This document shows, piece after piece, positions 10,216 to 21,543 of a stretch of 64,000 bases of DNA. The notes under the pieces were generated by a model, which did not search any database, was not told the origin of the DNA, and saw nothing but the letters and a program-made list of their open reading frames with translations. How positions within the stretch are numbered: position 1 is the stretch's first letter; each line of letters opens with the position of its first letter. The translations under genes and the position numbers were made by a program. Source of the DNA: Escherichia phage 232Ecol030PP; sequence record PP355090.1; one strand, written 5' to 3'.

Positions 10216-10686
10216 TTAATCATGTGTCCACACCCCATCGGTATTTGACCAAAGCCGCTGATTATCTGATCCTCTCCACAGCTTTTTGGTCGGAAGATTT
10301 TTCTCATACTTCCCATCAATAATAACATCAACATATTTAAGCATTTCTAGTTGTTTAATATCTTCAAACTTATATCCTGTCCACAACCAAATGCTTTTAT
10401 TTGGATAAAGATTTTTTACTGTTTGAACAATGCAATGAATAACATCTCGATTATCAGGATAGAGAGGGTCTCCTCCAGTTATAGTTAATCCTTCTATATA
10501 ATCATTATTCAAACATTCAATTAATTGTTCTAGTGTTTCACCAGTGAATGGAATACCATTTCTAGCATTCCATGTTGATTTATTATAACACCCTTCGCAT
10601 TTATGCAAACAACCTGTAACGAAAAGAACGACCCTGCAACCAGGGCCATTCACAAAATCGCAAGGATAAAATCTATCATAATTCAT
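10216..10686 (-). CDS. nrdG: anaerobic ribonucleotide reductase activating protein NrdG (radical SAM)
   Basis: 156 aa with CxxxCxxC cluster (GCLHKCEGC); ATGA overlap with nrdD stop. Confidence 0.9.
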   Translation of the reverse strand: MNYDRFYPCDFVNGPGCRVVLFVTGCLHKCEGCYNKSTWNARNGIPFTGETLEQLIECLNNDYIEGLTITGGDPLYPDNRDVIHCIVQTVKNLYPNKSIWLWTGYKFEDIKQLEMLKYVDVIIDGKYEKNLPTKKLWRGSDNQRLWSNTDGVWTHD

Positions 10687-12500
10687 TGATGCTTAACCCT
10701 ATGCATGATTTCTTTATTTTTGCCGAGATTAAATCCGCGTTCGTTCGGATTTCCCAAATAACCACATGTTCTTCTTATTGTATTCATCTTTTTAGGATCA
10801 GTTTCTCCACAAATAGAACAAACAAATCCGTTTTCAGTAGGAGTCATTTCATGGGTACTTCCGCATGTAAAACATTTATCCACTGGCATATTAACACCAA
10901 AATAATCTAAATGTTGTGCAGCATAATCCCATACGGCCTCAAGACCTTTCAAGTTATTTTTCATATCAGGAAGTTCAACATAAGAAATGTGACCACCTGT
11001 CGCAATGAAATGATATGGCGCTTCACGAGAAATCTTTTCAAACGGAGTAATATTTTCTTCTACTGAGACATGGAAACTGTTAGTGTACCAGCCTTTATCG
11101 GTAACATCTTTTACACTTCCATATTTTTCTGTATCGAGTTTACAGAAGCGATAACAAAGGTTTTCAGCAGGAGTCGAATATAAACTAAAAGCAAATCCGG
11201 TTCTTTCAGTCCACTGTTTAAGATGAGCATTCATTTTAGTTAAAATTTCTCGTCCAATATCACGACCGACAAGAATATTCAATTCGTGAATACCAATGTA
11301 TCCTAAAGACACTGAACTTCTACCGTTTTTAAATAACTCAATTATATCGTCATCAGGTTTAAGACGAACCCCAAATGCACCTTCTTGGTAAAGAATAGGA
11401 GCAACAGTAGCTTTAACTCCTTTTAAGGAACTAATTCTACACATCAAAGCTTCAAAACATAAATCCATTCGTTCATTGAACAATTCAACAAATTTCTGTT
11501 CATTGAACTGTGTTCCAATATAAGAATCTAACGCGATGCGAGGAAGATTCAGTGTTACAACACCAAGATTATTACGTCCATCAAGAATTTCATTACCAGT
11601 CGAATCTTTCCATACGCCCAAGAAACTACGGCAACCCATTGGAGAAACAGGAACAGATGAACCAGTGATAGCTTTATTGTTCTTAGCTGAAATAATATCA
11701 GGATACATCCTTTTGCTTGCACACTCTAGAGCAAGCTGCTTAATATCATAGTTCGGATCGTCTTTATAAAGATTAACACCTTCTTCAACGAACATAACAA
11801 GCTTAGGGAAAATAGGAGTTATTCCATCACGACCAAGACCTTTAATACGATTTTTCAGAATTGCTTTCTGAATCATTCGTTCAGTCCAGTCAGTTCCTGT
11901 ACCAAATGTAATTGTTACAAAAGGTGTTTGTCCGTTTGAACTAAAGAGAGTATTTACTTCATATTCATAAGCTTGGAATGCATCGTATACATCTTTTTCT
12001 GTTTTAGATTGAGCATAATTCAACGCATCAGCGATTTGCCATTTTTCTGCATCCTCAATATGTTTTGCATAGGTGCGTTTAACATAAGGAGAAAGTACTT
12101 TATCGACATTAGCAAATGTAGTTCCGCCATACTGGTGAGAAGCAACCTGTGCAGTAATTTGTGCCATAATTGCAGTAGCAACACCGATTGATTTAGGAGT
12201 TTCAATCTGTGCATTACCAAGCTTAAATCCGTTCTCAAGCATTCCTTTTAAATCTACTAAACAACAATTAGTAAATGGAAGAGCAGGGGAATAATCAATA
12301 TCGTGGAAATGGATAATTCCGCTTTCATGCGCTTTCATAATAAAAGACGGGACCATATTTTTGGCAATGTGTTTAGACACAATACCAGCCATAAGGTCCC
12401 GTTGAGTTGGAAAAACACGAGAATCTTTATTAGCATTCTCGTTTAAAAGGTCTTTATTAGTTTTATGAATCAATCCTTCAATTTCTTTTTCAATTGTCAT
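10683..12500 (-). CDS. nrdD: anaerobic ribonucleoside-triphosphate reductase NrdD, uninterrupted (no intron)
   Basis: 605-aa continuous ORF ending with glycyl-radical motif RTCGYLG and C-terminal Cys cluster. Confidence 0.92.
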   Translation of the reverse strand: MTIEKEIEGLIHKTNKDLLNENANKDSRVFPTQRDLMAGIVSKHIAKNMVPSFIMKAHESGIIHFHDIDYSPALPFTNCCLVDLKGMLENGFKLGNAQIETPKSIGVATAIMAQITAQVASHQYGGTTFANVDKVLSPYVKRTYAKHIEDAEKWQIADALNYAQSKTEKDVYDAFQAYEYEVNTLFSSNGQTPFVTITFGTGTDWTERMIQKAILKNRIKGLGRDGITPIFPKLVMFVEEGVNLYKDDPNYDIKQLALECASKRMYPDIISAKNNKAITGSSVPVSPMGCRSFLGVWKDSTGNEILDGRNNLGVVTLNLPRIALDSYIGTQFNEQKFVELFNERMDLCFEALMCRISSLKGVKATVAPILYQEGAFGVRLKPDDDIIELFKNGRSSVSLGYIGIHELNILVGRDIGREILTKMNAHLKQWTERTGFAFSLYSTPAENLCYRFCKLDTEKYGSVKDVTDKGWYTNSFHVSVEENITPFEKISREAPYHFIATGGHISYVELPDMKNNLKGLEAVWDYAAQHLDYFGVNMPVDKCFTCGSTHEMTPTENGFVCSICGETDPKKMNTIRRTCGYLGNPNERGFNLGKNKEIMHRVKHQ

Positions 12501-13012: not shown

Positions 13013-13189
13013 TTAAGTATTGTAAAACATTCGATGCAATCGTTTATACTGTCGAATCATCTTTTTAGTAGGACGAGAATAGGTTCCTACGCAAGTGGTC
13101 ATATGAGGGTCCGTAGAATGTCCTTTAATAAAAAGTTTCCAAACCTTACCGCCATTTAACTTTTCAGTATAAACCAATTCGGTTTTCAT
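13013..13189 (-). CDS. hypothetical 58-aa protein with pin-like C-terminus
   Basis: ATG at 13189; C-terminal IRQYKRLHRMFYNT matches the pin C-terminus; encoded over repeat copy A. Confidence 0.35.
   Translation of the reverse strand: MKTELVYTEKLNGGKVWKLFIKGHSTDPHMTTCVGTYSRPTKKMIRQYKRLHRMFYNT
13015..13058. repeat. direct repeat copy A (pin 3'-end-like)
   Basis: 44 nt aagtattgtaaaacattcgatgcaatcgtttatactgtcgaatc, 4 mismatches to copy B. Confidence 0.8.
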
Positions 13190-13224: not shown

Positions 13225-13710
13225 TCAAGTATTGTAAAACATTTGATGCAATCGCTTATATTGCCGAATCTTTTGGTCAGAAAAAGAAATTTGAGTTTCA
13301 AGCCATTCAATGTACTCTGCGGCAGCTTGCATCAGGTTACCTTCATAGCCATCGTTATTTTCTTGTGCAGCTAATTTAGCTAATGCGTATGAAATACGTT
13401 CACCTTGAAAATCGGCTTTAGGCTTCTGAACAACTTGATTAGTTCGCTCTACAACTTCTTCAATTTCGCCATTTTCGACTGATTCAGTATTCCACAAGCA
13501 CCAATACGTAATTGGCTTATCATAGATGTTAATAATCTTTCCGTCGGAAAGTTCAATTTCAATAATTCCAGTGTCAGGCTCTATATCATCTTCACATTCT
13601 TTTGCAAGTTCACGAACTTTAAAGACAGTACCTGCACTAAGTTCCGGCCAGTAATTACATAGCCCTGTATCAATACGATTAATTCTAAACCACTTATCTA
13701 CTGTAATCAT
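13225..13710 (-). CDS. pin: protease inhibitor PinA (inhibitor of host Lon)
   Basis: ATG at 13710 gives 161 aa MITVDKWFRINRIDTG...; position between nrdC and 49 as in T4. Confidence 0.7.
   Translation of the reverse strand: MITVDKWFRINRIDTGLCNYWPELSAGTVFKVRELAKECEDDIEPDTGIIEIELSDGKIINIYDKPITYWCLWNTESVENGEIEEVVERTNQVVQKPKADFQGERISYALAKLAAQENNDGYEGNLMQAAAEYIEWLETQISFSDQKIRQYKRLHQMFYNT
13227..13270. repeat. direct repeat copy B (3' end of pin)
   Basis: aagtattgtaaaacatttgatgcaatcgcttatattgccgaatc; flanked by 23-nt direct repeats at 13201-13223 and 13276-13298. Confidence 0.8.
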
Positions 13711-13832
13711 GTCCCATCTCCATATCAATTAAGTCATTTATCGTTGGTTCATTATATACTGTTTCTTCATCAGTGTAAACCGGTTCTTCCGGCTCTGGCT
13801 CTACAGTTTCCCATCTAGCCGCCCACCAAGGT

Positions 13833-14503: not shown

Positions 14504-14725
14504 TTATTTAAAAGTCTCGTCGTAATCAAGACTTTGGCCCGTTTGTTCTTTATGTTTGTATATAATATCACTTACTTCTGATAGCATATTTTTATATGAA
14601 CGAGTTAAAGCAGATTTAAGCACGCTGTATCTATCAGGAAATTTACCGTGTTCATTATAATAAGCTATTGCTAATTCACGGACTGCCTTTTCAGCAGCCT
14701 CCATATATTCTTTACGCTTGGTCAT
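14504..14725 (-). CDS. hypothetical protein
   Basis: 73-aa ORF, ATG start. Confidence 0.5.
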
Positions 14726-14727
14726 TT

Positions 14728-15117
14728 TTAATCCAAAATATTATTAGGCATTGGTTGAACACTCACAAGTTCTTTAAAGAACTCAGTAGAGTCAGGCAAT
14801 TTAACCATTTCCGGAGCATGCTTACTGAATTTATGTTTACATTGACGGCATTTATATTCAAGCTCCGGTTTACGCCAGTTAATCAACTGAACTTGTTCAG
14901 TACCGCATTCAGGGCAATTAGGAACGTTTTTAGAAGCTCTTTCACGTCGTTCAACCATAGCCATAATAGCATCCCATGCTGGAGGTTTAAAATCTAAATC
15001 GTCGCAGCCGTGAATCTTTCCACGCATTTCCAAATTGTCTTCTTCACCAGCCATAATAATTTTAATTAGACTAGAATTACTTGAAGCTGCAATGTCTTCT
15101 AATAGACGCTTTTTCAT
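14728..15117 (-). CDS. hypothetical protein with zinc-ribbon motif
   Basis: 129 aa with CPECG...CRQCKH (CxxC...CxxC). Confidence 0.55.
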
Positions 15118-16043
15118 TTCAATACCTCAATAGCATTGCGTAAACCATTTGCTTTTGCATTAAGAGCTTTTAACAATTTGGTGTGTTCTGCAATTTGGGC
15201 TTCAACTTCAATCAAACGAGCATTGAGATATTCGCGTTCTTCGCTCAAGTTATCAACCTTTTCTACTTTAGGCTCTTTTACAACTGTCTTATATGTATTA
15301 GGGTTCTTCAGTTTAATTAGAATGCGTGAACTGTATAACATTGAACCATTATCTTCGGTTTCGTCATACATTTCCACTACGTCCATCATCTCCACCATCG
15401 TGCAGAGTTTATAAGACAACGAACGAATAATTTTGTTGTGCTTATTAATTTCTCTAGCTGTCATGGTGCCGAGATTACGTGAGTAATAATAAGGAACCTG
15501 GATATTAATTAATACTGATGAACCACCTGGCTTGTGTGTTACTTCATCAGCAATAACCCAGTCCTTAACATGAACTGTATTTGTACGGTCATCGCCCGCG
15601 GTAAATAGTTTGCGAGCATGCTTAAAAAGCATATTCACTTGGTCATTGAATTGACAAGCAAATTTATCAGCAAATTTAGTTTCAGGAATGGTAGAAAACC
15701 AATCAGCCAAATGAGTCTTTTTAACATCATTAACAATAGTAAATTCAACCAAATCGGTTATAGATGTCGCAGTTTTAATGAATCTCGGCTTCATAAAGTT
15801 TTTAATGTTATCGCGAGCTACAGTAGAAGATAACATACGAGAACGTTTAAACCATTCAAGTAAATTGCCTAACGAATGAGAATAAGCGTTCTGAGTATCT
15901 TTACAGATATGATTTTCCTGGCCAACATACTGAAGGAAATCACGAAGAATATTATTGATTACTGCTCTGTGTCCTATCTGATAATCACGATGTTTAGTAA
16001 TAAGACTGTCAAAATAATCAATATAATGTTTACGAGTTTTCAT
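15114..16043 (-). CDS. hypothetical protein with C-terminal coiled coil (paralog family member 1)
   Basis: 309 aa, ATG start, N-terminus MKTRKHY..., C-terminal heptad-rich segment. Confidence 0.6.
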   Translation of the reverse strand: MKTRKHYIDYFDSLITKHRDYQIGHRAVINNILRDFLQYVGQENHICKDTQNAYSHSLGNLLEWFKRSRMLSSTVARDNIKNFMKPRFIKTATSITDLVEFTIVNDVKKTHLADWFSTIPETKFADKFACQFNDQVNMLFKHARKLFTAGDDRTNTVHVKDWVIADEVTHKPGGSSVLINIQVPYYYSRNLGTMTAREINKHNKIIRSLSYKLCTMVEMMDVVEMYDETEDNGSMLYSSRILIKLKNPNTYKTVVKEPKVEKVDNLSEEREYLNARLIEVEAQIAEHTKLLKALNAKANGLRNAIEVLK

Positions 16044-16097
16044 GTTCTTCTCACTTGGTTAATGGTTTATACTCCGAGCCATCCTTGGCTTTAAATT

Positions 16098-17099
16098 TTA
16101 CTTAATTAACTGTAAAGCTTGTTCAAGACGATCCAGGCGATTAACAGATTCTTCCCAAATCCTTTTAGCCTGCTCATATTCTTTCTGTGCTTTATTAGAA
16201 ATTTCTAGAACTTCTTTATAAGCTTTTTCTAATGCAATAACTTCTGGACGAATTTCTACCGATTCAGGTGAATCATCAAGATTATCCATTAGTTCCTCAA
16301 GGGTAGTTTCTTCTTTAGGGGTATTCACAATTTCTTCACATTTTTGTTGATAAATTTCTTTATTAGTAGGTGAGTACGCGCACTTTACTTCACGAAGACT
16401 AACTACAATTTTATATCCTTCCCAACCGCATATATTCTTAAAAGGATAAGTATGAATATTTTCTACCGTTTCCATACAAAGTAATGCAGTCTCTAACTGA
16501 CGAGTTGTATCACTAGCAATTGAGAAAAATTTATTAATGTTCTTTTGATTAGCTTCTGGTGTAAAAAATTCATAATTCACAAAAATAGCTGCTTTATTTT
16601 TATCAAGTTCATATTCTTTTATGATAATCATATCAGAAGCCAAAGGATGAATTTGACGATAATCGCCATAACATAATTTAGAAGCTGATTTTAGAATTTG
16701 CTTCTTGAAAAGTCTAAAATTACTAATCCAACGACGAGTAAAAATATTCTCAGGGTCTTCTTTATTATTAAGATGATAAGAATTAACATCACCGAACCAA
16801 CTGTATCCTACTACATCTTTGGTTCGTTTAATTTCTTTCCCAAAATTACTAAGAATATCTTGATTAACTAAATATGAAAGAAGACGAGAACCTTTAAAAG
16901 TTTCCTTAATATCATCTTTATATTCGCGACTAGAAATTTTATGAACTTCATGAATAAATTTGCTTGAAGAAACAATACTTGCATCAATATTATTGAGCCA
17001 TTGATTGATAATGGAAAGAACGCTATTTTGGCCAAACATCGGTATAGCTTTATCATCAATAACGCTATTGAATGATTTGATATATTCGTTACGAGTCAT
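16098..17099 (-). CDS. hypothetical protein with C-terminal coiled coil (paralog family member 2)
   Basis: ATG at 17099 with GAGGAG RBS (MTRNEYIKSF...), 333 aa. Confidence 0.6.
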   Translation of the reverse strand: MTRNEYIKSFNSVIDDKAIPMFGQNSVLSIINQWLNNIDASIVSSSKFIHEVHKISSREYKDDIKETFKGSRLLSYLVNQDILSNFGKEIKRTKDVVGYSWFGDVNSYHLNNKEDPENIFTRRWISNFRLFKKQILKSASKLCYGDYRQIHPLASDMIIIKEYELDKNKAAIFVNYEFFTPEANQKNINKFFSIASDTTRQLETALLCMETVENIHTYPFKNICGWEGYKIVVSLREVKCAYSPTNKEIYQQKCEEIVNTPKEETTLEELMDNLDDSPESVEIRPEVIALEKAYKEVLEISNKAQKEYEQAKRIWEESVNRLDRLEQALQLIK

Positions 17100-17156
17100 A
17101 ATAATCTCCTCAGTAGAAAGTAAAAACATTATACCACATCCTTGTGGCAAAGTAAA

Positions 17157-18185
17157 CTAGTTCAGTGCATTTAGTGCATTGTTCAGTTTAGAACGTTGCT
17201 TTGTCAGATTTTGAACCCTTGACTGAGCTTGTTCTAACGCCTTTTCAGCTTCTAGCACTTCATTGGTCGCTTTAACGAGTTCATCATCTACTGCCTTAAG
17301 AGACTTCTCAATCGCGTCAGCGTGCCATTTTTCTACAGGTTTAAAATTTGAATTTTCAGTAGGAAGAAAACTCACTTTATTAAGTTTACATGCATCTATA
17401 TTGCTTGAGCTATACATCCAAAATTTAGGATCGTTTGATAAGTAATTGGATAAATTTAAATTTAAGGTATCTTGCACTTCCTGCTTTTTCTCTTGAACAA
17501 TTTCATCCTTTCTCAAAAATTCATATTTAAATGAAACGATCATATCAAGTTCATATGTTGTTGTATGTTCCCAATTTCGCTCAAAACGAGGTAAAATCTT
17601 AGATTGAACAGCAGCAACAACATCCATATACTTAAATGCTTCTGTCAGCTGTGATTTAAGACATTCACAAATTGAAAGAGAATTTTTAGTATTAGGCTTA
17701 AAGCTAATTCGTGCAGTTCTATTATTTTCTTTTAACGGTCTTACTTCCATCTGAAGAGTATAACCATCAAATTTCAGGTTCTTTAAGTTAATATCAGAGC
17801 CTTTTAATCGACTAGCAGTAGACAAAATTTGCTTTAATTGTTTACGGAATAGAGCAATAAATCTCCATTCAATACGATAATGATTTGGATTGAAAAATCC
17901 AGATGATAAATCGACCTTACTTTGACCAACGCCTTGAACAATCAAAGGATTTTTATAATCAATAGTTTTACAGAAATCGGTGAGCTGTTCACGAGCAGTC
18001 ATTTGTGTAATATACCCTGCTTTACTAAAATTACGCACCCATTCACTGCTATTCGTATACTTAAAGTGATGAATAACACGATTAACTTTATCAGGGTCTA
18101 AATTATTTTCACACAAAAATGTCATAACATCACGAGTATAGCTGGCATTACGAACCATATCTTCAATTTGAGAACGAGTTTTCAT
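17157..18185 (-). CDS. hypothetical protein with C-terminal coiled coil (paralog family member 3)
   Basis: 342 aa, N-terminus MKTRSQIEDM..., motif FRKQLKQILSTASRL resembling FKKQILKSASKL in member 2. Confidence 0.6.
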   Translation of the reverse strand: MKTRSQIEDMVRNASYTRDVMTFLCENNLDPDKVNRVIHHFKYTNSSEWVRNFSKAGYITQMTAREQLTDFCKTIDYKNPLIVQGVGQSKVDLSSGFFNPNHYRIEWRFIALFRKQLKQILSTASRLKGSDINLKNLKFDGYTLQMEVRPLKENNRTARISFKPNTKNSLSICECLKSQLTEAFKYMDVVAAVQSKILPRFERNWEHTTTYELDMIVSFKYEFLRKDEIVQEKKQEVQDTLNLNLSNYLSNDPKFWMYSSSNIDACKLNKVSFLPTENSNFKPVEKWHADAIEKSLKAVDDELVKATNEVLEAEKALEQAQSRVQNLTKQRSKLNNALNALN

Positions 18186-18193
18186 GGTGTTCC

Positions 18194-19081
18194 TTAAGAT
18201 TTAAGTAAATCAACGATTTTAATTAATTTTTCACGCTCAGATTTAGCTTTACTACTCAATCCAGATAGTCTGAAAATTTCATCATCATATTGCTGAATAG
18301 AAATATTTAGCTCTTCAATCTGCTTATTAAAATAAGCAATTTGTTCAGAATGTTTTTCATTACTGCGAACTGGTACAGGTTTTGTAGGTAATTTAGTTGA
18401 ACTGGATTCATCTGGGCGATAAATTAAAATGCAATTTGAACCAATCGGACATTTAGCACCAGACACATATTCTAATGTTCCGGCTTCTTTTAAAACTTCA
18501 AAAGCTAAACAGAGATGATGCCCCATATTAACATAATCTGTAGAGCGAGCTCTGATGTAATAATCATCTCCACGAGTACTAAATTTAAAGCATTTAAGGT
18601 CTTCTGTATTATTGGTCTTAAAAATCATTTGTTTATCTAGACCTTTAGCTAATCGAGCGCCTAATGCTAATAATCGTCGTTGATTTTCCCACAAATCCGC
18701 AATCATTTGGTCAAATGATAATTTCGGCATTAGTCGACCATAAAGGTCATATCCTTTATTATAATTGCGAAGGATTTCACTCGCATTAATACGAGACAAC
18801 GCTCCAATTTTATTAAGGGCTTTCATGATGCGATTAGATAAACCCATTCCAGATCCGTTTGTTCGTTGCAAATGTTTATCTAACCCAAACCCAATATCAA
18901 CTTTAAATTTATCTAAAATTTCAGCATGAACATCTCTGTCAATAACATTCAAATCCAAAGTTGGGTTAAATCTATGAAAAAATTTATCTGGCTCTCCACG
19001 ACGAAGTACAGTCCATTCATTTAATTTTTTATTAACTAAAGATTTAATTACTGCATTGACATTATTAATTACTACTGACAT
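18194..19081 (-). CDS. hypothetical protein with C-terminal coiled coil
   Basis: ATG at 19081 with GAGGAAAAT RBS (track start 19102 is TTG), 295 aa. Confidence 0.55.
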   Translation of the reverse strand: MSVVINNVNAVIKSLVNKKLNEWTVLRRGEPDKFFHRFNPTLDLNVIDRDVHAEILDKFKVDIGFGLDKHLQRTNGSGMGLSNRIMKALNKIGALSRINASEILRNYNKGYDLYGRLMPKLSFDQMIADLWENQRRLLALGARLAKGLDKQMIFKTNNTEDLKCFKFSTRGDDYYIRARSTDYVNMGHHLCLAFEVLKEAGTLEYVSGAKCPIGSNCILIYRPDESSSTKLPTKPVPVRSNEKHSEQIAYFNKQIEELNISIQQYDDEIFRLSGLSSKAKSEREKLIKIVDLLKS

Positions 19082-19088
19082 ATTTTCC

Positions 19089-19496
19089 TCACTCAATTTC
19101 AATTTTACTAAATATACAGAATAAGATGGAACAGACTATATAAGCACCACACACAGATTGAACTAATACCATTCCAAAGAACCAAACAATATTATCAAAC
19201 AATGTCTGTTTTACGTCGAAAGGACGTAAACTTACAGTAATATTATCGCCTTTTTCTATTGATGAATACATCTCTGGTGAAATATATTCACTAAATCTAT
19301 AACCGTCTTTGAGTTCATATACGGCAATAAACGATAAACTAGACCCCTTTCCTTGAGTTCCTGTAAGGGTATTAACTACAGTAACATCATAATCTTTATA
19401 ATGCATATAATCATTAATTGCGTAATAACCATATGCAATTGCTATACATAAACAACATATCAATAAATTCAATCTTTTAATTATCAACTGTTTCAT
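19089..19496 (-). CDS. membrane protein
   Basis: 135 aa with N- and C-terminal hydrophobic helices. Confidence 0.55.
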   Translation of the reverse strand: MKQLIIKRLNLLICCLCIAIAYGYYAINDYMHYKDYDVTVVNTLTGTQGKGSSLSFIAVYELKDGYRFSEYISPEMYSSIEKGDNITVSLRPFDVKQTLFDNIVWFFGMVLVQSVCGAYIVCSILFCIFSKIEIE

Positions 19497-19551
19497 AATA
19501 ATCTCAATTAAAAGGGCTTAGAACCATTATACCATCCTTGGTATAAAGCGG

Positions 19552-20079
19552 TTATGCGAGTACCGTCTTTAACCGTTCTTCAAACTTCCGAAGAGTATTC
19601 TGGCGTTCAGCTCTTTGCTTTTTGTAAGTTTCAATACGCTCTGAAATGAGAGTGTATCGTTCATTTACTGATTCTTTCATAAAATCAGGAATTTCACGAG
19701 AAGCTTTAATCTCATCAAATTTATCAATAACAGCTTGCTCTTCAGCAATTAAGTTATCATACATCAAAATATCTTTCTTGATGAACTCAATATCTTCTTG
19801 AGTTACACGAGATAATTTAGATGCTTTATCCTTTTTGTACTGTTCGTTAGTATCACGAGACCAGTGTAATGTACGATTTTTATTCGTATTCTTGTAAATT
19901 TCTACAATACCAATCTCATCGATAATAACGATCCAATTCCAACGAGATTTGTAAATTTGTCCTCCGTCAACCGTGATTTCACCTCCGATTGAGATGTCAT
20001 TAAAGAACTTACTTTGTGCTTCAGATTTAAATTTACCATCGTTGTAATTTACCAGGTTGAAAATATCTTTAGCGTTCAT
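19552..20079 (-). CDS. hypothetical protein
   Basis: 175-aa ORF, ATG start, downstream of early promoter. Confidence 0.55.
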   Translation of the reverse strand: MNAKDIFNLVNYNDGKFKSEAQSKFFNDISIGGEITVDGGQIYKSRWNWIVIIDEIGIVEIYKNTNKNRTLHWSRDTNEQYKKDKASKLSRVTQEDIEFIKKDILMYDNLIAEEQAVIDKFDEIKASREIPDFMKESVNERYTLISERIETYKKQRAERQNTLRKFEERLKTVLA

Positions 20080-20106
20080 TTTGTGTTCCTCCGTAGTTGA
20101 TAGTTG

Positions 20107-20137
20107 TATAGTACCACAGAGGAACAGTCTTGTAAAC
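20107..20137 (-). promoter_or_regulatory. T4-type early promoter (conserved GGTACTATACAACTATC class)
   Basis: Minus strand GTTTAC (plus 20132-20137), spacer, TACTATACAACTATC, RBS, ATG at 20079. Confidence 0.5.
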
Positions 20138-20139
20138 CA

Positions 20140-20454
20140 CTAAAAGAAACTTCTTTCACAATTTTTTCCACTGAACCATGCGCTTACCGCTTTCTTAGTC
20201 TCAGGAGCAGTGTTATCCATAAACCATTCAAAGGCAGTCTTTTTATGATTCTGGAGGGCTTCTCGGGCTTTAATCTGCTCACGGTCTATTAACACTAACA
20301 TATGAGCCTTTCTTGTCACCATGGGCTTCTTATGATTTTTTGAATACTCCCAGTCATTTGTCCATCGCATTGTCGTTGCGAACTTAAATACTGCTTCTTT
20401 AATTTTAGTTTCGTAAATTTCACGAGCCTTTGAGTATAACATCATTACCTCCAT
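20140..20454 (-). CDS. hypothetical protein
   Basis: 104-aa ORF, ATG start. Confidence 0.5.
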   Translation of the reverse strand: MEVMMLYSKAREIYETKIKEAVFKFATTMRWTNDWEYSKNHKKPMVTRKAHMLVLIDREQIKAREALQNHKKTAFEWFMDNTAPETKKAVSAWFSGKNCERSFF

Positions 20455-20544
20455 TCACCAGTTTAATTCTAGTCATCTTTTTAATGGCAGTCCATATAAT
20501 CTATTTCTGAACTGCCTTTTTGTCATAGAAGTCCTCTTATGAAT

Positions 20545-21513
20545 TTATTTCAGAAGAGTAACCTCAGCGATTTCTTGCCAACCGTTTTTGTCGGTCATAA
20601 TAAAGTCAGCAAGATAAAGTGCAGTACGCAGTGAAACATTGCGTAAACGGTTAACATTGACTTTCATCCATGATAATGCTTTATAAGTTTCTTCATCAGA
20701 AAGACCGCGCTTTTGCATCATGTCAGTTGAAAGAATAACATCTTCAACCCTGACCATAATTTCTTCATTAGTGTGAACACCCAAATCCAAATAAACCGAG
20801 CGGGACACTAATGCTTGTAAATGTGGAGCAAGTTTAGTACCACGGTCTAATTCGCGGTCAATGTCAACGTTTGTGATAAAAACAATCGTTCCTTTAAATT
20901 CAAACTCACGCTCAATGCCTTTTTCTTCTAAGTAAGAAGATGCGGTGCTCCAGCAGACTTTACGGGTCTCTCCAGTGTCCAGAGCAGCTTTCAGAAGATT
21001 AAGAATGTCCATATCAGAGAAAACATCCACATCATCAATCAAAAGGACAGAATTCTCTTCACGATTATTCCAAAGTTGTTCATAAAGACCGATACCGGAG
21101 ATTTTACCGTTAATGCTTTTATATTCAATGTATCCATTATCATTTGCTTTATTCAAAGCTTTATCTAAAGAATACGTTTTACCAATACCCGCCGCACCAG
21201 AGATAATTAATGAACGAATGTTTCCGTTAATAATACCATTCGTCATCATTCCCATAACATTAAATCTTTTATTAATGCGGGTTTTCATATCTTCATATGA
21301 TTCTTTAACTTCTTCAACTTTTACACCATCATATGAAATGTCTGATTTGTAAACCCAAACACCGCGACGCTTACCGTCAATTTCAACAAAAACTTTACCA
21401 TCTCCTTGTGCATCTACCGGAGCATTATCTGGGAACCATTCACCTAAGAGCTCAAAAGTTCCAGAGATTTCTTTACCGAAGTAGATACCCTTATTGATAG
21501 TTACAGTTTTCAT
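20545..21513 (-). CDS. P-loop ATPase (AAA-like)
   Basis: Walker A GAAGIGKT and Walker B VLLIDDVD; ATG at 21513 with GGAG RBS (track start 21531 is GTG). Confidence 0.65.
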   Translation of the reverse strand: MKTVTINKGIYFGKEISGTFELLGEWFPDNAPVDAQGDGKVFVEIDGKRRGVWVYKSDISYDGVKVEEVKESYEDMKTRINKRFNVMGMMTNGIINGNIRSLIISGAAGIGKTYSLDKALNKANDNGYIEYKSINGKISGIGLYEQLWNNREENSVLLIDDVDVFSDMDILNLLKAALDTGETRKVCWSTASSYLEEKGIEREFEFKGTIVFITNVDIDRELDRGTKLAPHLQALVSRSVYLDLGVHTNEEIMVRVEDVILSTDMMQKRGLSDEETYKALSWMKVNVNRLRNVSLRTALYLADFIMTDKNGWQEIAEVTLLK

Positions 21514-21543
21514 TTTATTCTCCAATCTCACATTTGTTTTGAT

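Follow-up and report, generated by a model that had tools for sequence, protein, structure and literature searches.

Four tandem genes in the nrdC region of Escherichia phage 232Ecol030PP are ancient paralogues, one of them orthologous to the anti-Dsr1 gene nrdC.5 of T4

About half of the genes of phage T4 have no assigned function, and the block of nrdC.x genes is a classic case. In a 64,000-nucleotide stretch of DNA from Escherichia phage 232Ecol030PP (PP355090.1; hereafter called the window), this block harbours four consecutive genes coding for proteins of similar size, which raises the questions of whether they descend from a common ancestor and what they do. An original prediction had described them as a diversifying family of paralogues with variable bodies and a conserved oligomerization tail, possibly serving anti-defence or superinfection functions. 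We confirm that the four genes are very old tandem paralogues, orthologous to nrdC.3, nrdC.4, nrdC.5 and nrdC.6 of T4, and find that their products share one predicted, phage-specific fold. As these are long-known T4 open reading frames (ORFs), one of which has a published anti-defence role, they do not represent a new kind of system.

Common ancestry of the four proteins

The window belongs to a Tequatrovirus, and its segment 15000-19600, which is matched in 740 phage records, is ~97% identical to that of Escherichia phage EC101. Gene identities were set by comparison with the annotated T4 reference and with T4_ev151 (Table 1). The four ORFs, all on the minus strand, follow each other closely, with spacings of 8 to 57 nucleotides, and the first three proteins begin with MKTR, MTRN and MKTR, as had been noticed before. 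Their neighbours are nrdC.2 and nrdC.1 at one end of the array and nrdC.7, nrdC.8, nrdC.9 and nrdC.10 at the other. Synteny with T4 identifies the locus as the nrdC to nrdC.11 region, the content of which varies between genera, in line with its earlier description as an accessory region.

The four proteins share only 13-26% identity, and all-against-all comparisons nevertheless revealed similarity that exceeds composition. Direct blastp among them yielded a sole match, between nrdC.3 and nrdC.4, with E 2e-7 and 26% identity in a 226-residue stretch of the body. Using hhalign profiles built from database homologues and from orthologues out of 14 IMG/VR loci, nrdC.3 and nrdC.4 aligned with E 6e-12, and nrdC.4 and nrdC.5 with E 1.2e-5 (probability 81%) over 235 collinear columns. 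These columns extend from residue 68 of nrdC.4 to the C-terminal helix and include a basic motif. As an empirical control, every window ORF of 200 residues or more, 25 in total, was compared with the profiles. The nrdC.4 profile ranks nrdC.3 and then nrdC.5 ahead of the noise (E ~0.12), and the nrdC.5 profile ranks nrdC.4 and then nrdC.3, so that nrdC.4 and nrdC.5 are reciprocal best matches. On the basis of these alignments, nrdC.3, nrdC.4 and nrdC.5 can be regarded as homologous with good confidence.

A MAFFT alignment of nine diverse members of the family lines up three blocks, M1 (SRxLSxxxAxDxLxxF), M2 (FRxxxxxLxxAxRLxxGD) and M3 (LxxAxxxMDxV), together with a C-terminal end of the LxxAhxxLK type. 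These elements are collinear and in register in all four proteins and in the members encoded by phages of Klebsiella, Enterobacter and Acinetobacter, M3 being degenerate in nrdC.6. M2 is the basic motif that the original prediction had found in two of the proteins, and the other two carry it in register as well.

When compared directly by sequence with the other three proteins, nrdC.6 showed no significant similarity (hhalign E 0.01-0.2). Including the secondary structure of the models in the comparison with nrdC.4 still gave E 0.2, though the parts that were aligned are structurally equivalent. At the sequence level, nrdC.6 is connected to the others by a single bridging protein. Entb45_145 of a Kanagawavirus matches the body of nrdC.4 (E 6e-4) and the M2 region of nrdC.6 (E 3e-4) in consistent register, these links having arisen from roughly 80 comparisons. 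KP179 gp156 matches nrdC.4 (E 6e-5) and nrdC.5 (E 2e-3).

AlphaFold2 models of nrdC.4 (pLDDT 83.8) and nrdC.6 (pLDDT 79.2) have the same predicted order of elements. Both start with N-terminal helices and a helix-helix-short-helix unit; a long helix then stands between two beta hairpins, and after the second hairpin a disordered linker leads to a long C-terminal helix. In both models, M2 is located on the second helix of the helix-helix-short-helix unit. A Foldseek search of BFVD with the nrdC.4 model gave 18 matches at E <=1e-3, all of them proteins of 150-370 residues from T4-type phages, including nrdC.6 of JS10 (E 3.3e-5) and two adjacent proteins of Acj61. Beyond its own family, the nrdC.6 model matched proteins of IME523, PM2, fHyAci03, Acj9 and Acj61 (E5E4A2) with E from 4.5e-7 to 6e-4. 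Both models match a common small Straboviridae set in BFVD, with E between 1e-5 and 1e-7, and nothing else, and after this set the E-values fall off from 2.2e-4 to 1.1e-3 and weaker for nrdC.4, and from 6e-4 to 0.07 for nrdC.6. From the structural and transitive evidence, we conclude that nrdC.6 is homologous to the other three proteins. The common fold would extend to nrdC.3 through its sequence homology with nrdC.4.

Might four unrelated ORFans simply happen to share their size and a coiled-coil tail? Such a coincidence would fit the lack of significant direct similarity of nrdC.6 to the others, the spurious matches that coiled-coil segments yield and the division into three families in Pfam and PHROGs. 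However, the nrdC.3-nrdC.4 and nrdC.4-nrdC.5 similarities lie in the globular body, beyond the tail, all four proteins have collinear motifs, and the nrdC.4 and nrdC.6 models agree both in element order and in their restricted set of matches. Furthermore, the syntenic position is kept as far as Acinetobacter phages. Coincidence is largely refuted for nrdC.3, nrdC.4 and nrdC.5, and we hold it to be very improbable as an explanation of the locus.

In the databases, the four proteins are split between families of unknown function held to be unrelated. nrdC.5 is a full-length match to PF23882 (DUF7235), with 405.6 bits and E 1.9e-121 for a gathering score of 30 bits. The other three proteins do not match PF23882 and hence are not members of DUF7235, although they share its architecture and, by profile and structure comparisons, its ancestry. 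nrdC.3 (E 9.1e-116) and nrdC.4 (E 2.3e-166) match phrog_1435 over their full lengths and correspond to PF26897, and nrdC.6 corresponds to phrog_2257 and PF26899, in agreement with the precomputed Pfam tags on homologues. Our analysis merges DUF7235, PF26897/phrog_1435 and PF26899/phrog_2257 into one superfamily with 1 to 4 copies across Straboviridae.

A search of 1.84 billion representative proteins with a combined nrdC.3 and nrdC.4 profile using HMMER gave only 9 matches, all of them nrdC.3- or nrdC.4-like. As this profile finds only its own kind, sequence searching alone cannot join the families. Searches for related loci with KP179 gp156 and Acj61p120 yielded hardly anything beyond near-identical copies, which did not suffice for intermediate profiles, and sequence searches of the PDB returned nothing but spurious designed helical repeat proteins. 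A DNA repeat search revealed no similarity or gene-conversion tracts between the paralogues beyond short chance matches. Because no repeats link them at the DNA level, the duplications are old.

The C-terminal tails were evaluated with a home-made heptad score, a crude proxy distinct from COILS or Marcoil, which considers Pro-free helices of at least 28 residues. Among 61 window ORFs, the C-termini of nrdC.3 (residues 279-306, 0.76), nrdC.5 (315-342, 0.81) and nrdC.6 (247-274, 0.72) are in the top 7, with fibritin, a true coiled coil, in first position (0.94). The heptad-rich tails proposed for all four proteins are thus found in three of them. The best window of nrdC.4 (0.62) is close to its N-terminus, and its tail, with weak heptads, is a less regular 48-residue helix in the AlphaFold model. 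Within groups of orthologues, the tail is the best-conserved segment, with 0.60 versus 0.43-0.51 elsewhere for nrdC.4 and 0.65 versus 0.28-0.49 for nrdC.6. Between paralogues, the tails have in common only their helical character and the LxxAhxxLK-like end, so that the notion of a conserved tail on variable bodies holds within groups of orthologues.

Distribution and variation in Straboviridae

Between nrdC.10 and nrdC, the family is represented by four copies in Tequatrovirus, three in Dhakavirus/Gaprivervirus-type phages, which lack nrdC.3, two adjacent copies in Acinetobacter phage Acj61 (Lasallevirus), and one each in Klebsiella phage KP179 (Jiaodavirus) and Enterobacter phage Entb_45 (Kanagawavirus). 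In fHe-Yen9-01, one copy is found just upstream of nrdC.10. Both nrdC.3 and nrdC.7 are absent from 10 loci of the Dhakavirus/Gaprivervirus type (L007-L016). No similarity to the family was detected in the candidates examined in Aeromonas phage AhMtk13a or in Acj61p118, and Vibrio phage V05 has no syntenic candidate. In T4-type phages of Klebsiella, Enterobacter and Yersinia, a distinct conserved family of ~260-residue proteins with the motif HAPFDGYLWE adjoins the nrdC.3-6-like gene (L018 12107-12895, L029 10807-11577 and L030 11648-12439); none of the window ORFs examined corresponds to it.

Between genera, nrdC.5 is the least conserved of the proteins compared, with 20-29% identity, followed by nrdC.4 and nrdC.6 with 41-52% and nrdC.8 with 67-70%. 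Among ~650 phages, nrdC.3 falls into discrete allele classes (at least 90%, ~75% and ~60% identity). The window allele belongs to the class that is ~60% identical to the T4 reference allele, with a dS of ~1 relative to T4. Between classes, identity is 82% in the N-terminal region and in the tail, 46% in the core and 25% in the linker. In a sliding comparison of the window with locus L005, the variable segment is sharply bounded (Table 1). The nrdC.3 core carries a recombining allelic cassette, which is the clearest signal of diversity in the family.

The gene-wide dN/dS ratios of nrdC.3 to nrdC.6 are between 0.08 and 0.33, that of nrdC.6 being ~zero relative to the nearly identical copy in L005, and those of nrdC, gp49, nrdC.8 and nrdC.9 are between 0 and 0.15. 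With all values <0.35, gene-wide positive selection is rejected, and the pattern indicates relaxed constraint. The proposal of a diversifying family is hence supported in part, most clearly by the nrdC.3 cassette; in terms of dN/dS, the genes rise above several conserved neighbours and stay well below 1.

Various rearrangements of these genes were found in nature, in phages that are intact in other respects. In a 167-kb contig (P0119), nrdC.4 has been deleted and the middle of nrdC.5 is joined in frame to the C-terminal half of nrdC.3, and Escherichia phage ACG-C40 (NC_019399, 47512-47727) has retained only residues 238-309 of nrdC.3. From these two cases, it follows that viable phages lose parts of the array. 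The nrdC.6 protein of Shigella phage Sf25 (P0121) is 378 residues long, owing to an internal tandem duplication of 83 residues that takes in the second hairpin, the linker and the first part of the tail. One IMG/VR phage has nrdC.4 divided between two ORFs (L009 6971-8003), and this gene occurs as fragments of 155-158 residues in phages T2 and vB_EcoM_G8 (BFVD A0A482N302 and A0A2Z5WKJ2), the sequences of which suggest frameshifted copies. The fusions, the internal duplication and the split copies fit the dispensability of nrdC.3 to nrdC.6.

Anti-defence context and putative function

A T4 deletion mutant infects neither ECOR17 nor MG1655 carrying dsr1 of ECOR17, and the ability to infect is regained when nrdC.5 is expressed (Srikant et al., eLife 2022, PMC9391042). 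T4 NrdC.5 thereby overcomes Dsr1, a SIR2-type defence, which bears out the anti-defence function for one member of the family; its mechanism is not given in that paper, and our literature search found no later one. The window NrdC.5 is 93% identical to that of T4 (tblastn), with a dN of 0.031. We found no evidence for the superinfection role also envisaged for the locus, and none of the four proteins harbours membrane-like segments. The product of nrdC.7, which is not a family member, does have strongly hydrophobic segments, as expected from its earlier description as a membrane protein.

Several genes of the neighbourhood are involved in counter-defence. In the common T4 accessory block, gp49.2 counters OLD (PMC13096335), T4 nrdC.1 has been reported as a Septu inhibitor, and bas37_0203 as an inhibitor of Druantia type III (bioRxiv 10.1101/2025.11.20.689424). 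The window nrdC.8 is probably the orthologue of bas37_0203, judging from gene order and gene length and not from an alignment. Like nrdC.3 to nrdC.6, these genes are expressed early, are dispensable on laboratory hosts and code for proteins with no recognizable domains. Unlike them, they encode small proteins of 73-175 residues that are not homologous to the family (hhalign E >=0.07 with nrdC.8). The nrdC.8 orthologue also ends in a helical, heptad-like segment. In transposon maps of T4 and Bas37, nrdC.3 to nrdC.6 are non-essential (bioRxiv 10.1101/2025.11.20.689424), and the genes are dispensable on E. coli K-12.

The best explanation of these data would be one Straboviridae-specific superfamily, expanded by ancient tandem duplication in an accessory block that is transcribed early and lies between nrdC.10 and nrdC. 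Each protein would be soluble and cytoplasmic and would act as a stoichiometric inhibitor of a host anti-phage defence protein. Its N-terminal helical region would be followed by an alpha/beta core, from which a disordered linker leads to a conserved C-terminal amphipathic helix. That the inhibitors would be non-enzymatic is suggested by the lack of invariant polar residues across the nine diverse aligned members and of any detectable catalytic Pfam domain. The body of each paralogue would recognize a different target, which for NrdC.5 would be Dsr1, and the C-terminal helix may oligomerize the inhibitor or form part of its binding surface.

The phage protein DSAD1, which inhibits DSR2 and blocks this SIR2-type NADase defence by direct binding, could provide a working analogy for the action of NrdC.5, although its target is DSR2, not DSR1, and it comes from a different phage lineage. 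Since nrdC.5 switches off Dsr1, nrdC.3, nrdC.4 and nrdC.6 are good candidates for acting against other defences. We infer anti-defence roles for them from the NrdC.5 phenotype, the anti-defence neighbours, non-essentiality, natural gene losses, the nrdC.3 cassette and the variation in copy number from 1 to 4 between genera. Extending from NrdC.5 and Dsr1, it is reasonably probable that the paralogues counter other defence systems by direct binding.

A number of observations weigh against this explanation, with respect to both the common fold and the function. Apart from the non-significant direct comparisons of nrdC.6, the Foldseek matches have low TM-scores (0.37-0.50), as the models differ in how the tail is positioned against the body, and the fold of nrdC.5 is deduced solely from its profile alignment with nrdC.4. 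As for function, gene-wide dN/dS values are below 1, and NrdC.5 is the sole family member with a phenotype. In two T4 HIDEN-SEQ comparisons, nrdC.3 to nrdC.6 had no fitness effect, and they are not among the hits named in the main text of that study (bioRxiv 10.1101/2025.11.20.689424).

Alternatively, the proteins might be host-takeover factors acting outside immunity, as modulators of host RNA polymerase, of the nucleoid or of nucleic acids, with NrdC.5 overcoming Dsr1 only indirectly. The net basic charge of three of the four proteins and weak matches to RNA polymerase dimerization domains are consistent with such roles, for which nrdC.3, nrdC.4 and nrdC.6 would come into question and which we nevertheless regard as unlikely, the restoration of infection of Dsr1 cells by nrdC.5 being a direct precedent for counter-defence.

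A tail-terminator or tail-completion fold might also be the origin of the alpha/beta core. In that case, the family would consist of decoys of virion neck or tail proteins sensed by immunity or have a cryptic morphogenetic role. All signals in this direction are below accepted thresholds, with a Pfam hint in only one of nine members, and the nrdC.6 model has no tail-protein matches in Foldseek. Proteins of the lambda gpU/SPP1 gp17 type are virion components of 120-160 residues encoded in late structural contexts and lack the N-terminal helical region and the C-terminal helix; their similarity to the nrdC.3-nrdC.6 core is below conventional significance. No significant structural or profile match and no structural-gene context support membership of nrdC.3 to nrdC.6 in these families, and the genes are dispensable and located in an early accessory block away from structural genes. 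We consider this origin quite improbable. It is equally a long shot that the superfamily is a reusable Straboviridae anti-immunity scaffold, in which a core derived from tail terminator/completion proteins would serve as a decoy for neck- or tail-recognizing sensors, each paralogue disarming a different one, and the C-terminal helices would assemble a possibly mixed, multi-specific complex.

Finally, many phage records label the nrdC.1 to nrdC.11 ORFs (window 14504-21531) as 'thioredoxin', which would make nrdC.3 to nrdC.6 thioredoxin-like or nucleotide-metabolism proteins. This label has spread from the gene name nrdC.x, which marks map position only. A CxxC motif is absent from all four proteins, Pfam gives no match to thioredoxin or glutaredoxin, and the models are not thioredoxin folds. 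We reject it as a misannotation for nrdC.3 to nrdC.6, a function in this category having next to no chance of being correct.

With inhibition of defence by direct binding as the preferred explanation, the link to anti-Dsr1 nrdC.5 turns the ORFans nrdC.3, nrdC.4 and nrdC.6 into specific, cheaply testable counter-defence candidates. The variable core and the conserved tail are the parts of interest for function. The recombining cassette of nrdC.3 and the fast-diverging body of nrdC.5 are the surfaces most likely to set specificity, and they would be useful in work on the inhibition or triggering of Dsr1-type sirtuin defences.

Features of the surrounding locus

The coordinates of the genes and of their parts are collected in Table 1. 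A sigma-70-like consensus is located in the gap between nrdC.5 and nrdC.4, and from its sequence it is a possible early promoter for nrdC.4.

Table 1. Genes, protein segments and other features of the nrdC.1-nrdC.8 region of the window
Feature	Position in window	Strand	Length or residues	Basis or remark
nrdC.1 orthologue	14504-14725	-		dN 0.006 vs T4
nrdC.2	14728-15117		129 aa	
nrdC.3 orthologue (protein A)	15114-16043	-	309 aa	T4 synteny; phrog_1435
nrdC.3 C-terminal amphipathic (heptad) helix	15117-15248	-	residues 266-309	
nrdC.3 hypervariable core cassette	15200-15800	-		56-68% identity vs locus L005; flanking DNA 98-100%
nrdC.3 M2	15588-15650	-		FNDQVNMLFKHARKLFTAGDD; basic motif
nrdC.4 orthologue (protein B)	16098-17099	-	333 aa from ATG	T4 synteny; phrog_1435
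nrdC.4 C-terminal tail	16101-16247	-		
nrdC.4 M2	16662-16718	-		alignment
nrdC.4 N-terminal helical region			residues 1-85	model
nrdC.4 alpha/beta core			residues 86-258	model
nrdC.4 disordered linker			residues 259-284	model
nrdC.4 C-terminal helix			residues 285-332	model
Sigma-70-like promoter consensus	17128-17156	-		TTTACT, 17-nt spacer, TATAAT preceded by TG; consensus match only
nrdC.5 orthologue (protein C)	17157-18185	-	342 aa	Pfam DUF7235; phrog_2351
nrdC.5 C-terminal tail	17160-17318	-		
nrdC.5 M2	17793-17849	-		alignment
nrdC.6 orthologue (protein D)	18194-19081	-	295 aa	phrog_2257
nrdC.6 C-terminal tail	18197-18358	-		
nrdC.6 M2	18635-18694	-		alignment
nrdC.6 linker			residues 222-241	model
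nrdC.6 C-terminal helices			residues 242-271 and 277-294	model
nrdC.7 orthologue, membrane protein, not a member of the family	19089-19496	-	135 aa	T4 synteny, hydrophobicity
nrdC.8 orthologue	19552-20079	-	175 aa	corresponds to bas37_0203 by position and identical 528-nt length

Several further features concern neighbouring genes. The nrdC.2 protein, which is 104 residues long in T4, is longer in the window and strongly divergent (dN 0.16). It harbours two CxxC pairs that resemble a zinc ribbon, and its Pfam match to Zn_ribbon_8 (E 7e-6) is below threshold. A homing endonuclease gene is present between nrdC.9 and nrdC.10 in T4_ev151 (L001 11508-12227) and absent from both the window (20455-20544) and the T4 reference. 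The window nrdD gene (10683-12500) is a single uninterrupted ORF of 605 residues, whereas that of the T4 reference is split by the I-TevII intron. Lastly, the C-terminus of a 58-residue ORF (13013-13189), MIRQYKRLHRMFYNT, is nearly identical to that of the adjacent pin-like ORF (13225-13728), IRQYKRLHQMFYNT, as if the 3' end of pin had been partially duplicated.

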